64,000 nt of DNA, taken from positions 16,597 to 80,596 of the forward strand of contig CAZXQG010000005.1 in the NCBI GenBank assembly GCA_964642725.1, written 5' to 3'. Shown piece by piece: positions 1 through 9,276 of the stretch (position 1 is its first letter; each line of letters opens with the position of its first letter). The position numbers and the translations under genes were made by a program. A model generated the notes under the pieces. The model saw nothing but the letters and a program-made list of their open reading frames with translations. It did not search any database and was not told where the DNA came from. Source of the DNA: an uncultured Chitinophagaceae bacterium (lineage in GTDB: Bacteria; Bacteroidota; Ignavibacteria; UBA10030; UBA8401).

Positions 1-26
1 CGTCTTTTCTTAGGGAGATCCGACTA

Positions 27-362
27 ATGAAATTCACATCGAAAGAAATCGCAGGGGTTACCGTAATCACGCTGGAAGGAAATGTTCTTGGCGGCCCCGA
101 TGCGACGGAATTAAACAACACGCTTCACAAGTTTATTGACGCAAAGAAAAAGAAGATCGTTGTCGACCTGAAAGGCGTTTCCTCGATGAACAGTTCCGGG
201 CTCGGCATGCTTATCGGCGGCGTTACCACAATGCGCAACGTCAAAGGCGACCTTAAACTCGCGGGCGCTTCAGAAAAGATCCTCAAACTTCTGCAGGTAA
301 CAAAGCTGCTTTCCGTCTTCGAACATTTCGATACGACAAAGAAAGCGGTTGAAAGCTTCTGA
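27..362 (+). CDS. STAS-domain anti-sigma-factor antagonist (SpoIIAA/RsbV-like)
   Basis: 111 aa. STAS-like pattern with a phosphorylatable Ser region (VSSMNSSGLGMLIGG). An intrinsic terminator hairpin follows at 386-420. Confidence 0.7.
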   Translation: MKFTSKEIAGVTVITLEGNVLGGPDATELNNTLHKFIDAKKKKIVVDLKGVSSMNSSGLGMLIGGVTTMRNVKGDLKLAGASEKILKLLQVTKLLSVFEHFDTTKKAVESF

Positions 363-385
363 ATATTTTCCTAATTACGAAAAAG

Positions 386-420
386 GCGCCTTGTCAATAC
401 AAGACGCCTTTTCTATTTTG
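386..420. terminator. Rho-independent terminator hairpin (ggcgccttgt-caat-acaagacgcc plus T-run)
   Basis: 10-bp stem with one mismatch, followed by ttttctatttt. Lies between the convergent STAS gene and the rpiB-like gene. Confidence 0.6.
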
Positions 421-503
421 GACCGTCTGCGATCTGCGAAAAATATGCATCTTCCGAGAAATCACGGCATTTTCGCGCAACGTCTCCGTCGACACCGGGA
501 GTT

Positions 504-1229
504 TTACTTCGTAAATTTCTTTTCTACATCCGATATTTTATCGACACGCTTTTTATGCCTCCCGCCGCCAAACCAGGTTTCCAGCCACACTTTGACGATG
601 GATTTGATAAGTTCTATTCCAAGCACTTTTGCCCCGAGGGTAAGAACGTTGGCGTCATTATGTTCCCGGCTGCTCTGAGCAACGAATTCGTTGAAACAGG
701 CAGCAGCCCGTATCCCTGGAAGTTTATTGCACACAATGGATGAGGCTACTCCCGTTGCATCAATCATGATTCCCCGCCATGCTTCCCCCTTCGCTACAAT
801 TCGAGCAACCGCGTAAGCGTAATCAGGATAATCACAGGCATCTTCTGAATTTGTCCCAACGTCCAGGATCCGGAATCCAAGGTCTTCAAGGTATTTCTTC
901 AGCAGCTCTTTCGTTTGAAAGCCGCCGTGGTCGCTGCCGATAACAATTAACTTCGAACCAACTTTCGACGAAGAAATCGTCGCGGCCCTGTAGGATTCCG
1001 AAGACGGTGACGGCTTCGGCCCGTCCGATGCTTCCTTTGTATCGATGAAATGTACTTTCAGTTCCTTTGCTTTGTCTTTCGCAGAGGGAGTGACAATGGT
1101 ATTCCTGTCGGCGAAGATGCTCGTCTTCCCTTCTTTAACCGCTTTTACAATATCGCGTTCTGTGAGAACTGTTTTCGCCATGGCTGGAAATTTCTTCTTA
1201 ACTATTTCGCGTACTCTTCGTCTCCCCAC
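504..1229 (-). CDS. rpiB: Ribose-5-phosphate isomerase B (RpiB/LacAB family) with a ~90-aa N-terminal extension
   Basis: The C-terminal 150 aa carry the RpiB blocks IVIGSDHGG, GIMIDATGVASSIVCNK, NDANVLTLGAKV. The true start may be the internal MAKTV (near 1181). Confidence 0.7.
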   Translation of the reverse strand: MGRRRVREIVKKKFPAMAKTVLTERDIVKAVKEGKTSIFADRNTIVTPSAKDKAKELKVHFIDTKEASDGPKPSPSSESYRAATISSSKVGSKLIVIGSDHGGFQTKELLKKYLEDLGFRILDVGTNSEDACDYPDYAYAVARIVAKGEAWRGIMIDATGVASSIVCNKLPGIRAAACFNEFVAQSSREHNDANVLTLGAKVLGIELIKSIVKVWLETWFGGGRHKKRVDKISDVEKKFTK

Positions 1230-1690
1230 TCAACAACTTCAAGTTTCACTTTTGCGGTGCCCGTTCCTTTCATTCCCAGCTGTGTTGCCGCAGCAACCGA
1301 AAGGTCAATGATGCGCTCCAGCTTGAAGGGTCCGCGGTCGTTGATGCGCACGACAATCGACCGTTTGTTGTCAAGGTTTGTCACGCGGACTTTTGTGTTA
1401 AACGGCAGCGAGCGGTGGGCAGCGGTCATTTTATACATGTCGTACGTCTCTCCGTTCGCCGTTTTCTTTCCATTAAAATCATCCGCATAATAGGAGGCGA
1501 TGCCCTCCATGGTTTTCAACGACTTCGCCTCACTGTTCCCTTCATGAGATCTCGACTCAGTCGATCGCTCTCGAGTGAAGCGCGGCGACGATGCGCATCC
1601 TGAACTGATGAAAGCCGCAGCGAGTACACCGACAATGAACCCGGAATAAACGAACAGCACCTTCGTATGTTGCCGGCCGGACTCTTTCAC
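1202..1690 (-). CDS. rlpA: Septal ring lytic transglycosylase RlpA-family lipoprotein (DPBB domain)
   Basis: Lipoprotein signal peptide (LAAAFISSGC). RlpA blocks GIASYYADDFNGKKTANGETYD and VRVTNLDNKRSIVVRINDRGPF. Confidence 0.75.
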   Translation of the reverse strand: MKESGRQHTKVLFVYSGFIVGVLAAAFISSGCASSPRFTRERSTESRSHEGNSEAKSLKTMEGIASYYADDFNGKKTANGETYDMYKMTAAHRSLPFNTKVRVTNLDNKRSIVVRINDRGPFKLERIIDLSVAAATQLGMKGTGTAKVKLEVVEWGDEEYAK

Positions 1691-1726
1691 AGTTCTCGTT
1701 GTGGTGGATTTTCGGAAACCGTCGAG

Positions 1727-2824
1727 CTATAAATAATCGTTCATCTGTTTGCGGCGTATATGATCGACAATCTCTTTCACATCCTGCGATGCACCGCGTT
1801 TGCAGATCAACAACGCATCTCCCGTGCTGACGATAATGAGGTCGTCAACACCGACCGTCGCCACCAATTTGTCGTTCGTGTGAACATAGCAATTGTTCGT
1901 GTTGAAGGAAATCACTTTCCCGTGAAGCGAATTTCCATGTTCATCTTTCGACGAAAGACGGTAGACTTCGTCCCACGATCCGACGTCACTCCATCCGAAT
2001 GCCCCGCGTATCACGTACGCGTTCGTCGCTTTCTCCATTACGGCGTAATCGATCGAGATTCCGCGTATCAACCCATACGCGTGCTCGATGCTCTGTTCGA
2101 GAAGCGGCGTCCCAAGCGACGGTTCGATGCTCATCAAATGGTCGTAGAGTTCCGGAAGTGAATGCTTGATCTCTTTCAAAATGACGTCTGCCCTCCAAAT
2201 GAACATACCGCTGTTCCAGAAGAAGTCGCCGCTTTCGATAAATTTCTGGGCAGTCGCAAGGTTTGGTTTCTCGGCAAACGTCTTTACTTTGAAAATTTCT
2301 TGTGGCGGCGTTTTGCTTGTGCCCTGTTCATCATCAACGATCTGGATATATCCGTAACCGGTCTCCGGATGGGTCGGCTGAATTCCGATAGTGATAAGGG
2401 ACGATTGCTCGTGCGCCGCATTTACGCCAACCTTCAAAACACGACGGAATTCTTCCTCGTCGAGTACAATATGGTCAGAAGGGAGCACCACCATTACGCC
2501 GTCAGGGTCCAGCCTGCTGACAAATATTGCAGCCAGTCCAATGCAAGTCGCGGTATTTCGTCCGATCGGTTCGCAGATAATGTTTTCAACCGGGATCCCA
2601 GGCAACTGTTTGATTACGGCATTCTTTTGCAGTTTGTTCGTGACGATAAAAATATTTTCGGGAGCAACAAAGCCGTTCAGACGCCCGACAGTGTTCTGGA
2701 TCAGAGTATGCCCGCCCGCCATTTCCATCAGCTGCTTCGGCATTCGTTCACGGCTCCGCGGCCAGAACCTTGAACCGACTCCTCCCGCCATGATCACGGC
2801 ATAGATCGTTGTTTGTTCACCCAC
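1727..2824 (-). CDS. manC: Mannose-1-phosphate guanylyltransferase (GDP-mannose pyrophosphorylase)
   Basis: N-terminal nucleotidyltransferase motif MAGGVGSRFWPRS. Full-length ManC-like protein of 365 aa. Confidence 0.8.
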   Translation of the reverse strand: MGEQTTIYAVIMAGGVGSRFWPRSRERMPKQLMEMAGGHTLIQNTVGRLNGFVAPENIFIVTNKLQKNAVIKQLPGIPVENIICEPIGRNTATCIGLAAIFVSRLDPDGVMVVLPSDHIVLDEEEFRRVLKVGVNAAHEQSSLITIGIQPTHPETGYGYIQIVDDEQGTSKTPPQEIFKVKTFAEKPNLATAQKFIESGDFFWNSGMFIWRADVILKEIKHSLPELYDHLMSIEPSLGTPLLEQSIEHAYGLIRGISIDYAVMEKATNAYVIRGAFGWSDVGSWDEVYRLSSKDEHGNSLHGKVISFNTNNCYVHTNDKLVATVGVDDLIIVSTGDALLICKRGASQDVKEIVDHIRRKQMNDYL

Positions 2825-2833
2825 ATTTCACCT

Positions 2834-4084
2834 TTAATGTTTAAGCAGCGCTTCGGGGTCTTGAAGAATTTGATTGATGCTTTCAAGCATTGCGGCTCCG
2901 TTGGACCTTTCAGTAAGCGCCTTCGAAAGACGTTCGCCGACTTCACGCATGACTTCCGCAACACGCTCGTCTTGAGCCAAACCCGATGAATCAACATACC
3001 GAATGAATTTTAGCACCGATAGAAAGAACTCGAGAATCTCCTTCTTCCCGTGCGCACGAGCGACCTCAGTTGAACCTCTCGCGATCATCGCTAGCACTGC
3101 AAACACGCTCTTGCGTTCAGAGGGAGTCTTCGTGCCGATCTTTGAAACAATTTCTGTGAAGCGCTGAAAGCCGAGCAAAAGATTTTGATCGAGAATGTCG
3201 GCGAGAGCCGGGGATTCCACGACAGCCGGCGGGGGCGGCGTTTGAGGTTCGGGCTTTGAAAACATCTCTGGCTGAACTTCAGCAGGAAGGTCAGTCGGTT
3301 CCTCCGCGACAAGAACAGGCGGTACCGGTTCCGTCTGAGGCTCGGCCTCAGGAAGATTCTCAGGCTGCGTCTCGGGTTCCAGTTCCGGAACAATTTCGGG
3401 CTGATTTTCTGTAAGAAGTTCCGTTGGTTCCTCCACAACATCGACAGGAGGCGCCGGTTCCATCTGAGGTTCAGGCTCGGAAATAATCTCAGGTTGAATT
3501 TCAGGAAGAACCTCCGCCGGTTCCTCGGCAACAGCGACTGGGGGCTCTGGTTCCATCTGAGGTTCAGGATCTGAAATAAACTCAGGCTGAACTTCAGGAA
3601 GAAGCTCCGCCGGTTCCGTCTGAACTTCCGGTTCGGGGAGAAGCTCAGGCTGATCGTGAGAAGCAAGTTCCGCCGGTTCCTCGGCGACAACGGCAGGCGC
3701 GGACATTGCGGTCTCAACCGGTGCGTCAAATGGTTCGCTGAGAAATGCTTCGAACAATTTGTCGCTCAGCAACATCGCATCGATGTCAAATTGATCAGGA
3801 GAAAAATCTTCGCCCGGCTGTGCGACGCGTTCCAGCAACCACTGCATGGAAAGTGCGGCTTTCGTGAAACCGAATACCTGGCTCAAATGGTGTAACTCGT
3901 CTTTTAGATTCGGCGCCTGCTCAAGCCGTTCGATCAAAACCCGCATCTTGCTCCCGTGAAAAGGAATCAAGCTGTCTTGCAATCCCGCTTGGGTTCGTTG
4001 AAGCACCTGCAATAAGTATTGTTCTGGGTTATCCATGTTTGTAATTTCTCGGAACTCTCTCGGAAACTGCACAGAATATTTCAT
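2834..4084 (-). CDS. Hypothetical cytoplasmic protein with a central Pro/Glu-rich ~31-aa tandem-repeat linker
   Basis: 416 aa with no signal peptide or TM segment. Residues ~125-292 are an acidic PE-rich repeat (PPVAVAEEPAEVLPEIQPEIISEPEPQMEP, about 5 copies), with globular-looking N- and C-terminal domains on either side. Continuous ORF with normal codon usage. Confidence 0.55.
   Translation of the reverse strand: MKYSVQFPREFREITNMDNPEQYLLQVLQRTQAGLQDSLIPFHGSKMRVLIERLEQAPNLKDELHHLSQVFGFTKAALSMQWLLERVAQPGEDFSPDQFDIDAMLLSDKLFEAFLSEPFDAPVETAMSAPAVVAEEPAELASHDQPELLPEPEVQTEPAELLPEVQPEFISDPEPQMEPEPPVAVAEEPAEVLPEIQPEIISEPEPQMEPAPPVDVVEEPTELLTENQPEIVPELEPETQPENLPEAEPQTEPVPPVLVAEEPTDLPAEVQPEMFSKPEPQTPPPPAVVESPALADILDQNLLLGFQRFTEIVSKIGTKTPSERKSVFAVLAMIARGSTEVARAHGKKEILEFFLSVLKFIRYVDSSGLAQDERVAEVMREVGERLSKALTERSNGAAMLESINQILQDPEALLKH
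3209..3712 (-). repeat. In-frame ~93-nt tandem repeats encoding the PE-rich linker
   Basis: Repeated ctcaggctgaacttcaggaag.../ccggttccatctgaggttcagg units are visible in the DNA; they correspond to the PEPQMEP/EEP(A/T)E(L/V)LPE peptide repeats. Confidence 0.6.
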
Positions 4085-5147
4085 ACGGGATTGTGCCGAG
4101 CGTATCGGAAATCTTCCAGCAGGAAATTTCCGAATCGCCGTCCCGTCCCATTAACGTCACCCGGTCACCAACCTTGCACGCAGCCCGCTCGCCGACATCG
4201 ATCATGAGTTGGTCCATGCAAATCGCGCCGACGACAGGGTATTTTTTCCCATTGACGAGAACGTCCGCTTTGTTCGTCAGCCGCCTGCTGATGCCGTCAG
4301 CGTAACCGATTGAAACCGACGCGATATTCGTTTTTGACGATGTGTAATAGCGACGTCCATAGCTGACGCTTGTTCCCTTCTCTACTGTTTTCATAAACTC
4401 GATCCTTGAACGTATTGACATTGCAGGTTTCAACGGCAGAGGTTTTCGAGTCTCTCGAGAAGGATAGCAGCCATACAGCATGATTCCGGGGCGAACCATA
4501 TCGAAATATGACTCTTTCAATTGAAGGATCGCACCGCTGTTGGCGCTATGTTTTATGGGAATGTGAATACCGGCTGAATCAAGCCCGTGGAGAAGTGAAG
4601 TAAAATCCGACAATTGTTTGCGGGCAAACGACAGATTTTTCGCATCCGCTGTGGCGAAGTGAGTGAATATTCCAGCCACTTCAATATTGCCGAGCATACT
4701 CACTTCACGGATAAAAGCTGTCGCATCTTTAGGGGCGATGCCAATCCTTCCCATGCCGGTATCGACCTTCACGTGAACGACGGCTTTTTTCCCCGCACCG
4801 GCCGCGATCCGGTCAAGGTTCCGCGCAATCGAAATTGAACACAAAGTCGCTCCCAGATTGTGCTCGACGAACAACGCAAGCTGCGGTTCCGGCGGCGCCG
4901 TCAGCACCAGTACTGGAGCCTCGATTCCGTTTTGCCGGAGAGTGACTCCTTCTTCAACAATGGCCACGCCGAGGTGCGATGCCAGTTTCTCTTTCAATAT
5001 CGACTTTGCAACCGGAAGCATTCCATGACCGTACGCGTTGGCTTTGACAACCGCCATTATGTATGGCTGCTTGCCGACCTGTTTTCGAACTTGCTTGAGA
5101 TTGTGATGAATTGCTTTGAGGTCAATTTCTGCGTAGGTCGGTCTCAT
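4029..5147 (-). CDS. alr: Alanine racemase
   Basis: PLP-binding motif AVVKANAYGHG. Full-length Alr-like. Start set at MRPTYAEIDL (5147) rather than the longer ORF start at 5180. Confidence 0.85.
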   Translation of the reverse strand: MRPTYAEIDLKAIHHNLKQVRKQVGKQPYIMAVVKANAYGHGMLPVAKSILKEKLASHLGVAIVEEGVTLRQNGIEAPVLVLTAPPEPQLALFVEHNLGATLCSISIARNLDRIAAGAGKKAVVHVKVDTGMGRIGIAPKDATAFIREVSMLGNIEVAGIFTHFATADAKNLSFARKQLSDFTSLLHGLDSAGIHIPIKHSANSGAILQLKESYFDMVRPGIMLYGCYPSRETRKPLPLKPAMSIRSRIEFMKTVEKGTSVSYGRRYYTSSKTNIASVSIGYADGISRRLTNKADVLVNGKKYPVVGAICMDQLMIDVGERAACKVGDRVTLMGRDGDSEISCWKISDTLGTIPYEIFCAVSERVPRNYKHG

Positions 5148-5213
5148 GAATTCAATCTTGGGAAAAAAAATCAATGCCAATATAGCAGATTAATGAAGAA
5201 GAATCAACGAACA

Positions 5214-5252
5214 TACAAAAAAGCCCACAAACGGATTTAATCTTTGTGGGCT
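5214..5252 (-). terminator. Rho-independent terminator downstream of atpC
   Basis: 10-bp perfect stem agcccacaaa/tttgtgggct followed by a T-run on the minus strand. Confidence 0.65.
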
Positions 5253-5275
5253 GTGAGACAAACTATTACGGCGGC

Positions 5276-5683
5276 TCAGTGGTTTTCTGCAATTTTTAAA
5301 CGATTGATGGCGCGAATGAGGGCAATTCGAGCGCGCTCTTCGTCAATGCGTTCTTCCTTTTGCAAACGCTCGGCAGCACGCTCTTTGGCTTTCTCTGCTC
5401 TCTGCACGTCAATTTCATCGGAGCGTTCGGCCGTCTCCGCTAAGAGAATAACCTTGTTGCCGTTGACTTCAACGAAACCGCCGCTCGTTGCATAACGGCT
5501 GACTGCTCCGGCAGGATCGACGACTTTCACCTGCCCGACCGTAATCGATGAAAGAAAGGGTGCATGATCGAACAATACCTGGAAGCCCCCCGCCACACCC
5601 GGTGCGCTGAAACTTTGCACTTCCCCGGAGAAAACCGTTTTCGTCGGAGTCACTATATCGAGATTAAAATTCTTTCCTGACAT
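5276..5683 (-). CDS. atpC: F0F1 ATP synthase epsilon subunit
   Basis: 135 aa of typical epsilon-subunit sequence, immediately downstream of atpD. Confidence 0.85.
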   Translation of the reverse strand: MSGKNFNLDIVTPTKTVFSGEVQSFSAPGVAGGFQVLFDHAPFLSSITVGQVKVVDPAGAVSRYATSGGFVEVNGNKVILLAETAERSDEIDVQRAEKAKERAAERLQKEERIDEERARIALIRAINRLKIAENH

Positions 5684-5704
5684 CAGAGTTCGTTGTTATT
5701 CTTT

Positions 5705-7138
<1,434 letters not shown>

Positions 7139-8315: not shown

Positions 8316-8335
8316 CTCTCATGCATAATACGAAG

Positions 8336-8407
8336 AGCTGAAGGTGGGATTTGAACCCACGACCTGCGGTTTACGAAACCGCTGCTCTACCGCTGAGCTA
8401 CTTCAGC
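8336..8407 (-). tRNA. tRNA-Thr (anticodon CGU)
   Basis: Cloverleaf folded by hand from the minus-strand sequence GCTGAAGTAGCTCAGCGGTAGAGCAGCGGTTTCGTAAACCGCAGGTCGTGGGTTCAAATCCCACCTTCAGCT. Acceptor stem 7 bp, D arm GCTC/GAGC, T arm GTGGG-TTCAAAT-CCCAC, anticodon loop TTCGTAA. CCA is not encoded. Confidence 0.9.
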
Positions 8408-8430
8408 CATGCTTTGATAATATAAAAAAA

Positions 8431-9144
8431 TTAGAAGAAAATTCCAATAAACGGCCCGTGAACCATGCGCGCATAGTCTTGCGTTTTATCGCTCATCGAC
8501 CATTTCTGAGTCTCAAACCGGTAACCCGCCGTTACACCATCTCCGATAAGTTCACGAAACAAAAATTGAAGTTCGGCAACGACGGCAGTAGACGACCCGC
8601 TTTCTACACTGAACCCTGCCGTGCTGTAATAAAGAATTCCAACGCCGGTGAATTGAACTCCAAAATTCTCTGTTATGTGTTTGTACTCCAAACCTGTCCC
8701 AATTCCGACACTTGCAATGTTAAAATCTTTGGATGAATTTGATGCACCGCCGGCCTCTACAAAATTCGTCGAAAACACAACTGGCAAAAACAAATTTCCG
8801 CGGTCGGAGGAGGCGGTTAATGAAATATCGGTTATCGATTCAGCGGCCAGCGAAATTTCCGAGCGGCTGTCAGTGTTAAACCTGTATGACGAATAACCAA
8901 AGGCAATCCGCAAGCCCAGCTGCCGGTATTCAGCGGACCACAAAGGGGACTTGACATGGATTTTTGCTGAATCGGAGAGCGTATTCCCTCCCGCCGGCTC
9001 AAAATCCTGAACCGATGTGTTTATCCCGAACGAACGGAAATCCTCGAGCGAAGGATAGTTCTCTTCAAAAAGCTGGCTTCGAGATTCTTTCGACGAACAC
9101 ACGAGAAATAAGAAAATAAAGCAGCACCTGGAAACAGTCATGTG
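8431..9144 (-). CDS. Putative outer-membrane beta-barrel protein
   Basis: Signal peptide (MTVSRCCFIFLFLVCSS), alternating-hydrophobic beta-strand pattern, and the C-terminal aromatic residue (…IGIFF) typical of OMPs. Confidence 0.5.
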   Translation of the reverse strand, partial: HMTVSRCCFIFLFLVCSSKESRSQLFEENYPSLEDFRSFGINTSVQDFEPAGGNTLSDSAKIHVKSPLWSAEYRQLGLRIAFGYSSYRFNTDSRSEISLAAESITDISLTASSDRGNLFLPVVFSTNFVEAGGASNSSKDFNIASVGIGTGLEYKHITENFGVQFTGVGILYYSTAGFSVESGSSTAVVAELQFLFRELIGDGVTAGYRFETQKWSMSDKTQDYARMVHGPFIGIFF

Positions 9145-9276
9145 TGTAACTCTTGCACCGTCCATAATATTTTTGCTGGTTGAATGTACATTTTTTTAAT
9201 GAAACTTTCATCCCGCTCAATTTGAGAAACAAAAACATTCAACGTATATTATGCATTAGATAAGGGCAGGAAAAAT

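Follow-up and report, generated by a model that had tools for sequence, protein, structure and literature searches.

The stretch of DNA under study (64,000 nucleotides (nt), referred to as the window) comes from an uncultured Chitinophagaceae bacterium (GenBank assembly GCA_964642725.1, contig CAZXQG010000005.1, positions 16,597 to 80,596 of the forward strand). It carries a gene, here named X, whose product is predicted from structural models to consist of two independently folding all-helical modules joined by a disordered polyanionic Pro/Glu tether. X had been placed by an initial annotation co-directionally between alr (alanine racemase) and the manC-like and rlpA genes, and this placement was borne out, with all of these genes on the minus strand and the identities of the neighbours verified. 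The coordinates of X, of its parts and of the flanking genes are collected in Table 1.

The open reading frame (ORF) of 416 amino acids (aa) first reported for X exists as described, and its start was corrected. The true start of X is very probably ATG 4036 (MDNPEQ..., 400 aa) rather than ATG 4084, as judged from the sequence comparisons. The shorter frame was taken as the X gene for the following reasons: ATG 4036 and the alr stop share the sequence ATGGATAA; the majority of full-length homologues have their start where MDNPEQ (MDNPEQYLLQ...) aligns; in remote homologues and in X from loci without alr, the start aligns with M17; and a 400-aa call exists for one member of the 90% identity cluster of the window protein. 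ATG 4084 falls inside the alr frame at the codons CCG TAT GAA ATA TTC (PYEIF). Exceptions to the MDNPEQ-aligned start were found in some truncated calls and in a minority of calls that begin further upstream, with a start of the MKYSVQF type; the existing X gene calls use three different start codons and need correction. The shadow ORF noted earlier as antisense lies on the same minus strand as X, and the plus strand opposite it holds only ORFs of 40-79 aa; it is a by-product of stop-poor repeat codons and no gene. Among the metagenome calls of X homologues, some join the C-terminus of alr to X and others begin in the X N-domain and continue in the R/N/L-rich +1 frame of the linker. The calls P0086, P0097, P0098 and P0104 are frameshifted into the +1 frame, truncated or fused to alr, and P0097 and P0104 end in R/N/L-rich low-complexity sequence of the same type as the shadow ORF. 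These odd calls look like assembly or calling errors, and frameshifted reads can give long spurious ORFs because the repeat DNA is stop-poor.

The two terminal domains separated by a Pro/Glu-rich stretch, as recognized at the outset, were recovered both by alignment and by structure prediction. In the 38 full-length homologues that form the core-family alignment, a 106-residue N-terminal part and a 125-residue C-terminal part are of fixed length and strongly conserved, with a linker between them that measures 169 residues in the window protein. Structure prediction of both domains, which had been proposed at the start, was run by AlphaFold2 (AF2) with the homologue alignment, and gave predicted local distance difference test (pLDDT) values above 90 for five helices in residues 4-99 (4-19, 25-40, 44-52, 58-72 and 80-99) and for the helices in residues 278-399 (five main helices: 284-298, 305-328, 332-351, 357-375 and 380-392), and values of 39-56 without secondary structure for residues 105-275. 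The N-domain invariants of the core family are Y7, R14, LQDSLIPxH, VxGF and FEAFLSEPF, and the C-domain opens with the near-invariant PALTDLLDQNLLLGFQRF; LQDSLIPxH, VxGF and FEAFLSEPF, together with LLDQNLLLGFQRF, make up the invariant surfaces of X. The AF2 model of a remote homologue (P0160; homologues of this type have about 14-18% alignment identity to core-family members) showed the same layout of five plus five helices with a linker of about 12 residues (mean pLDDT 88, predicted template modelling score (pTM) 0.53); in a tblastn search of this homologue against the window, at most 25% identity was obtained in the N-domain and no match in the C-domain. The pTM of 0.53 points to two domains without a confidently fixed mutual orientation in the model, despite the 12-residue linker. 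An internal duplication, by which the N-domain would be homologous to the C-domain, was ruled out (hhalign probability 0.1%). Neither a transmembrane (TM) segment nor a signal peptide was found in X (maximum Kyte-Doolittle mean over 19 residues 1.02, acidic N-terminus), in agreement with the first reading of the sequence, and X is predicted to be cytoplasmic.

The window linker consists of 24% Pro and 24% Glu, with one Lys, no Arg and a net charge of -43. Its length among the core homologues ranges from 30 to 169 aa, the window protein having the longest, and falls to about 12 aa in one remote subgroup; across homologues the linker can be aligned by composition only. The initial count of about five repeats of about 31 aa stood in so far as the periodicity exceeds chance and five copies can be read, but only two or three of them are well preserved and the remainder are degenerate. 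The protein self-identity peak at offset 31 was 0.41, against a maximum of 0.29 and a mean of maxima of 0.22 in 500 composition-preserving shuffles. A degenerate core EPxELLPExQPExxSxPEPQxEP is readable in all five copies; four units are headed by V(A/V)EEP(A/T)(E/D)L at residues 119, 171, 202 and 245 (spacings of 52, 31 and 43 aa), and the fifth, headless, lies between the units at 119 and 171. The tandem repeat of about 93 nt at the DNA level was likewise recovered by Tandem Repeats Finder (TRF) and by a DNA self-identity peak of 0.57 at offset 93 nt; on the identical gene in L001, TRF gave 93 nt x 2.3 copies (83% match) and a weaker array of 63 nt x 2.1 copies (77% match). The closest relatives have linkers of 60-75 aa without the 93-nt repeat, which marks the repeat as lineage-specific, and the window linker was lengthened in this lineage by tandem duplication of the 93-nt unit. 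Most orthologues are without a substantial tandem repeat (L006 and L022 have short arrays of 6 and 9 nt only). The L005 orthologue carries an unrelated tandem repeat (54 nt x 3.2 copies, 90% match, ESQPEPLTGLQ-type units; L005 4578-5585, gene positions 428-600), and linker expansion has therefore recurred. The repeat number had been thought likely to be strain-variable, which was not seen: the copy-number comparison suggested with that idea gave no within-species difference (four sequence variants of the 90% cluster on about 20 contigs, all of equal length), and it is between species that linker length varies. By these comparisons, tether length appears unconstrained across the family, from about 12 to 169 aa, and drifts, partly via tandem duplication. 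The eye-catching repeat can be regarded as an expansion, specific to this lineage, of a linker with which some relatives can dispense, and is probably nothing special functionally beyond supplying length and charge.

Table 1. Positions of X, its parts and the flanking genes in the window.
Feature	Position	Strand	Basis or remark
Maximal ORF of X	2834..4084	(-)	416 aa; ORF listing
Likely X coding sequence	2834..4036	(-)	400 aa + stop TAA at 2834-2836
In-frame upstream extension of 16 codons, MKYSVQFPREFREITN	4037..4084	(-)	Probably untranslated
X start/alr stop overlap, ATGGATAA	4029..4036	(-)	Read from sequence; putative translational coupling
N-terminal domain, residues 1-106	3719..4036	(-)	Alignment; constant 106-aa length; AF2 pLDDT 80-97
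Disordered linker, residues 107-275 (169 aa)	3212..3718	(-)	Composition; AF2
Repeat-bearing part of linker, about five degenerate copies of about 31 aa	3221..3706	(-)	Self-identity; sequence reading
Best-preserved tandem DNA repeat	3426..3617		TRF: 93-nt unit, 2.1 copies, 86% match
C-terminal domain, residues 276-400 (125 aa)	2837..3211	(-)	Alignment; AF2 pLDDT 81-97
Shadow ORF, 212 aa, R/N/L-rich low-complexity translation	3091..3729	(-), +1 frame relative to X	ORF listing
alr, alanine racemase	4029..5180	(-)	Pfam Ala_racemase_N/C; TIGR00492, 395 bits, above cutoff
manC-like mannose-1-phosphate guanylyltransferase, without PMI domain	1727..2824	(-)	Pfam NTP_transferase + ManC_GMP_beta-helix
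rlpA, RlpA-family lytic transglycosylase lipoprotein, DPBB domain	1202..1690	(-)	TIGR00413, 160 bits, above cutoff
rpiB, RpiB with N-terminal extension of about 90 aa	504..1229	(-)	TIGR01120, above cutoff on residues 95-236
atpD (5705-7114) and atpC (5276-5683)	5276..7114	(-)	Upstream of the cluster in every subgroup examined

Homologues of X are few: 86 were found among 5.8 billion proteins, and of 1.84 billion cluster representatives only 67 reached E<=1e-3 in a search with a profile built from the full alignment, linker included. Among 185,579 species-representative genomes, 21 X loci were found, all 21 in metagenome-assembled genomes labelled Bacteroidota, Bacteroidetes, Ignavibacteriales or (binchicken) Chitinophagaceae bacterium; the few names on remote members likewise read 'Bacteroidota bacterium', and no cultured carrier was present among the family members found. 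As far as sampled, the family appears confined to uncultured Bacteroidota/Ignavibacteriales-like lineages. Remote subgroups of 230-285 aa matched X in both domains by profile search, and in the hhalign comparison, which covered one remote subgroup (A4, the P0160/P0125 group), the core family matched with a probability of 98.5% for the N-domain (E 3e-15) and 96% for the C-domain (E 2e-9). Neither terminal domain had been recognized beforehand, and this was confirmed: X gave no match to Pfam or NCBIfam with the window protein, to PDB sequences with the X protein or a linker-less profile, or to Pfam in a scan of individual members (14 core, 39 superfamily), nor was a clear homology hit to any characterized family found. 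X has the features by which the family is defined, namely an N-domain of 106 aa and a C-domain of 125 aa encoded by a single ORF, with the manC-like and rlpA genes following immediately. At the level of sequence, the family appears to belong to no described family, and its two helical domains to be new.

The gene order at the 21 loci, where the contig was long enough, was trxR-like, atpD, atpC, alr, X, manC-like, rlpA and rpiB, with rpiB displaced by about 2 kb in L016. The X start overlaps the alr end in 18 of the 21 loci by tblastn coordinates; L011 and L020 have a short gap and L018 a gap of about 30 nt. The more distant subgroups vary in the genes around this arrangement. The P0178 subgroup has the order atpDC-alr-X-manC-rlpA with X overlapping the alr stop, and the P0120 subgroup the order atpDC-NamZ-alr-X-manC-rlpA-rpiB-...-NAGPA with a 4-nt alr/X overlap of the ATGA type. 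In the P0160/P0162 subgroup alr is absent and the order is atpC-X-manC-rlpA-rpiB, followed by an SLT lytic transglycosylase gene; the neighbours there are 50-80% identical to those of the window and X at most 25%. X-manC-rlpA was found downstream of atpDC in four of four subgroups and alr coupled to X in three of four, and in all four X sits 2-9 nt upstream of manC (9 nt between the X stop and the manC-like gene in the window). No terminator-like site was found at the alr-X or the X-manC junction in the promoter/terminator scan. The invariant association in these comparisons is X-manC-rlpA downstream of atpDC, usually with alr, which supports a link to the cell envelope; the cell-envelope context that was proposed at first thereby held in every one of the four deep subgroups, which differ in whether alr, NamZ, SLT and NAGPA are also present.

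X is tentatively read as a cytoplasmic adaptor or scaffold, a reading to which we give somewhat less than an even chance. X would act without enzymatic activity: each helical module would bind either itself or a partner, and the modules would be held apart and soluble by the linker, which is acidic and stiffened by proline and would have a contour length of about 60 nm and a typical span of about 10-15 nm (our estimate by generic polymer scaling). From the coupling of X to alr and the 2-9-nt spacing to the manC-like and rlpA genes, its partners would most likely be found in cell-envelope precursor supply or peptidoglycan remodelling. Several points weigh against the adaptor reading. The functional link to the envelope is drawn entirely from gene order, and the conservation of this order may partly reflect descent, because the whole block (atpDC and the trxR-like gene included) is collinear within one broad lineage. 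The subgroup with the linker of about 12 aa indicates that a long tether is unnecessary for the core function. Finally, the CheA P1 match described below was assigned to the C-domain from the aligned length and the helix lengths rather than from the alignment.

The least probable of the alternatives is that X is a pseudogene or a spurious ORF held open by low-complexity repeat DNA. The repeat region is indeed stop-poor in two frames, and the metagenome calls P0086, P0097, P0098 and P0104 are broken, but dN/dS was 0.04-0.14 (about 0.1) in both flanking domains against 12 orthologues wherever dS was unsaturated, the frame stays open in all full-length homologues whatever the length of the linker and is intact in over 80 homologues, each of the four deep subgroups has a positional orthologue, the identical sequence recurs on more than 20 contigs, and the AF2 models of the window protein and a remote homologue are confident. 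These comparisons argue that X is a real gene and selectively maintained, and the pseudogene, which had been named beforehand as an outcome to look for, is effectively refuted. It is likewise very improbable that the C-domain is a working or regulatory histidine phosphotransfer (HPt) module of a phosphorelay, using a non-canonical phospho-residue or docking a regulator or kinase. This alternative arises from the top natural fold matches of two independent models, which were CheA P1 domains from Salmonella, E. coli and Rhodobacter, although with Foldseek E-values that are not significant; the likeness, if real, would lie in the four long antiparallel helices plus a short fifth modelled for the X C-domain. 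HPt domains are marked by a conserved phospho-accepting His, exposed to solvent on the second helix (HxxKG-type motif, PF01627), and this defining residue is missing from X: the helix aligned to the HPt His helix reads AVLAMIAKSS, and no conserved His was present in the C-domain in either the core-family or the superfamily alignment. Furthermore, no Hpt Pfam match was obtained for the window protein, 14 core members (E<=10) or 39 superfamily members (E<=1), hhalign of X against a CheA P1 template sequence gave a probability of 0.4%, and, unlike CheA, X has no chemotaxis or two-component genes nearby, with no histidine kinase or response-regulator gene in the flanks of the loci from four subgroups. 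HPt membership was thus rejected for lack of both the His and profile similarity. The X C-domain would be no more than a pseudo-HPt-like bundle, with a parallel in principle in FimL of P. aeruginosa, whose HPt-like domains likewise are without the phospho-acceptor His; such His-less domains can act as scaffolding or regulatory modules (PMC3019171). The HPt-like domains of FimL, however, are recognizably homologous to ChpA, and those of X to no HPt family.

The polar organizer PopZ offers another alternative, that X is a self-assembling hub in which oligomerization is the task of the C-domain and recruitment of clients that of the N-domain, and in which repulsion by the acidic Pro-rich disordered region adjusts assembly or the fluidity of condensates. 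The composition of the X linker (Pro 0.24, Glu+Asp 0.26, net charge per residue -0.25) is almost that of the PopZ disordered region (Pro 0.23, acidic residues 0.29, net charge per residue -0.28; PMC9512792), both proteins are cytoplasmic without a membrane anchor and share the order of parts (helical N-terminus, acidic Pro-rich disordered region, helical C-terminus), and a 12-column motif near the beginning of the X C-domain, PxLx[DE]xLDQNL, recurs in the PopZ C-terminal helix. We nevertheless regard a PopZ-like hub as improbable. In hhalign comparison with 120 PopZ proteins, the probability was 0.1% for the X N-domain, 6% over 12 columns for the C-domain and 0.3-1.2% for the remote subgroup, and no match to PF10691 (DUF2497) was found in the X members scanned. 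The ends of X are five-helix bundles of 100-125 aa, as opposed to a single N-terminal helix and three C-terminal helices in PopZ; the X linker varies more than 10-fold in length, unlike the PopZ region, which is narrowly conserved within clades (PMC9512792); and PopZ belongs to the Alphaproteobacteria, another phylum. Homology to PopZ, which LDQNL and a likeness in the pattern of the N-terminal helix had suggested, was rejected by this profile comparison, so that PopZ would be an analogue of X in composition and layout and no relative. By analogy, it can be speculated, with little expectation of being right, that X arose independently as a functional PopZ analogue that organizes envelope-precursor enzymes (Alr, ManC-like) or growth and division sites, with tandem duplications as an evolutionary dial on linker length. 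A weightier alternative, although still unlikely, is that the gene order is inherited synteny and X is a fast-evolving helical regulator or adaptor unrelated to the envelope, the repeat being a neutral slippage expansion; regulation of ATP synthase or central metabolism can be given as an example because X always follows atpDC. In line with it, the block from the trxR-like gene, atpD and atpC to rpiB is collinear in all subgroups, the neighbours stay 50-83% identical where X is at most 30% identical, as is typical of non-enzymatic proteins, and the linker can be as short as about 12 aa or as long as 169 aa, the repeats of different lineages being unrelated. On the other hand, the start/stop overlap with alr (8 nt in the window) and the 2-9-nt spacing to manC are kept across subgroups at less than 30% X identity, and extra peptidoglycan genes (NamZ, SLT and NAGPA) have been recruited to the cluster in different subgroups; these observations speak against inherited synteny as the whole explanation.

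The architecture of X had also been compared with the flexible linkers of ZipA, FtsK and TonB, and this analogy proved weak. ZipA, FtsK and TonB have N-terminal membrane anchors, P/Q or (EP)n(KP)n linkers and, at the C-terminus, ZipA_C, the FtsK motor or TonB_C, respectively. What X has in common with them is a long Pro-rich flexible spacer between modules and an envelope or division context. X differs in being without a TM segment, in its purely acidic linker, numerically closest to the PopZ disordered region, and in its all-helical ends. No Pfam match to ZipA_C, FtsK or TonB_C was obtained for X. Its hydropathy maximum of 1.02 and all-helical C-domain are at odds with ZipA, and the missing TM segment and the linker with one Lys and no Arg are at odds with TonB. 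The homologue P0007 is labelled 'outer membrane biosynthesis protein TonB' by the Joint Genome Institute and gave no match to a TonB-family domain; the label is most likely a compositional artefact of the Pro-rich linker.

X remains a conserved hypothetical protein of a familiar kind, namely helical modules on an acidic Pro-rich tether. If the adaptor reading holds, the X family would be an undescribed non-enzymatic family, hard-wired to alanine racemase by the start/stop overlap and preceding the GDP-mannose pyrophosphorylase/RlpA gene pair in every subgroup, in a little-known and entirely uncultured branch of the Bacteroidota, and would add a case of a convergent PopZ-like polyanionic Pro-rich tether. 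If X were instead a PopZ-like hub, it would be a pole- or site-organizing scaffold of these Bacteroidota. The family merits a domain model, as its two helical domains are without a Pfam or NCBIfam entry, and its natural series of linker lengths (about 12 to 169 aa) would allow the importance of tether length to be examined.

In the scan for regulatory signals, 8 terminator-like matches were found, below the shuffle expectation of 11.4, two of them inside X (3384-3400 on the plus strand and 3031-3050 on the minus strand). Promoter-like matches numbered 11 (7.2 +/- 3.1 expected), without clear enrichment, and one promoter-like site lies upstream of alr (5207-5179). The Rfam and tRNA scans of the window gave tRNA-Thr only.

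The starts of several neighbouring genes were also found to be called differently. The alr start is ambiguous, the maximal ORF beginning at TTG 5180 and the gene callers using ATG 5147. The manC-like protein matches TIGR01479 (E=2e-102) in the GMP part only; the internal ATG used by the callers (356 aa) would cut the conserved nucleotide-binding loop AVIMAGGVGSRFWP, and GTG 2824 (365 aa), 9 nt past the X stop, fits better as the start. The N-terminal extension of RpiB overlaps the rlpA 3' end and the callers start later (225 aa); RpiB residues 13-59 show weak similarity to the C-terminal part of TIGR02536 ('ethanolamine utilization protein', E 7e-6, far below cutoff).

Upstream of the trxR-like gene, beside tRNA-Thr (8335-8407 in the window, within the region 8335-9165), the contigs of this species are not all alike. 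L002-L004 (about positions 1-5300) carry there a primase-helicase gene (DnaG/Toprim/DnaB_C) and small ORFs, where thioredoxin-like, 137-aa and 244-aa genes are found in L001 and in the window; this flank may be a strain-variable island. Outside the window, a type IX secretion system cargo gene (LTD + PLDc_2 + Por_Secre_tail) forms one ORF of 1105 aa in L002-L004 and is split into ORFs of 671 and 409 aa in L001 (17123-20440), either by a strain-level frameshift or by an assembly error.

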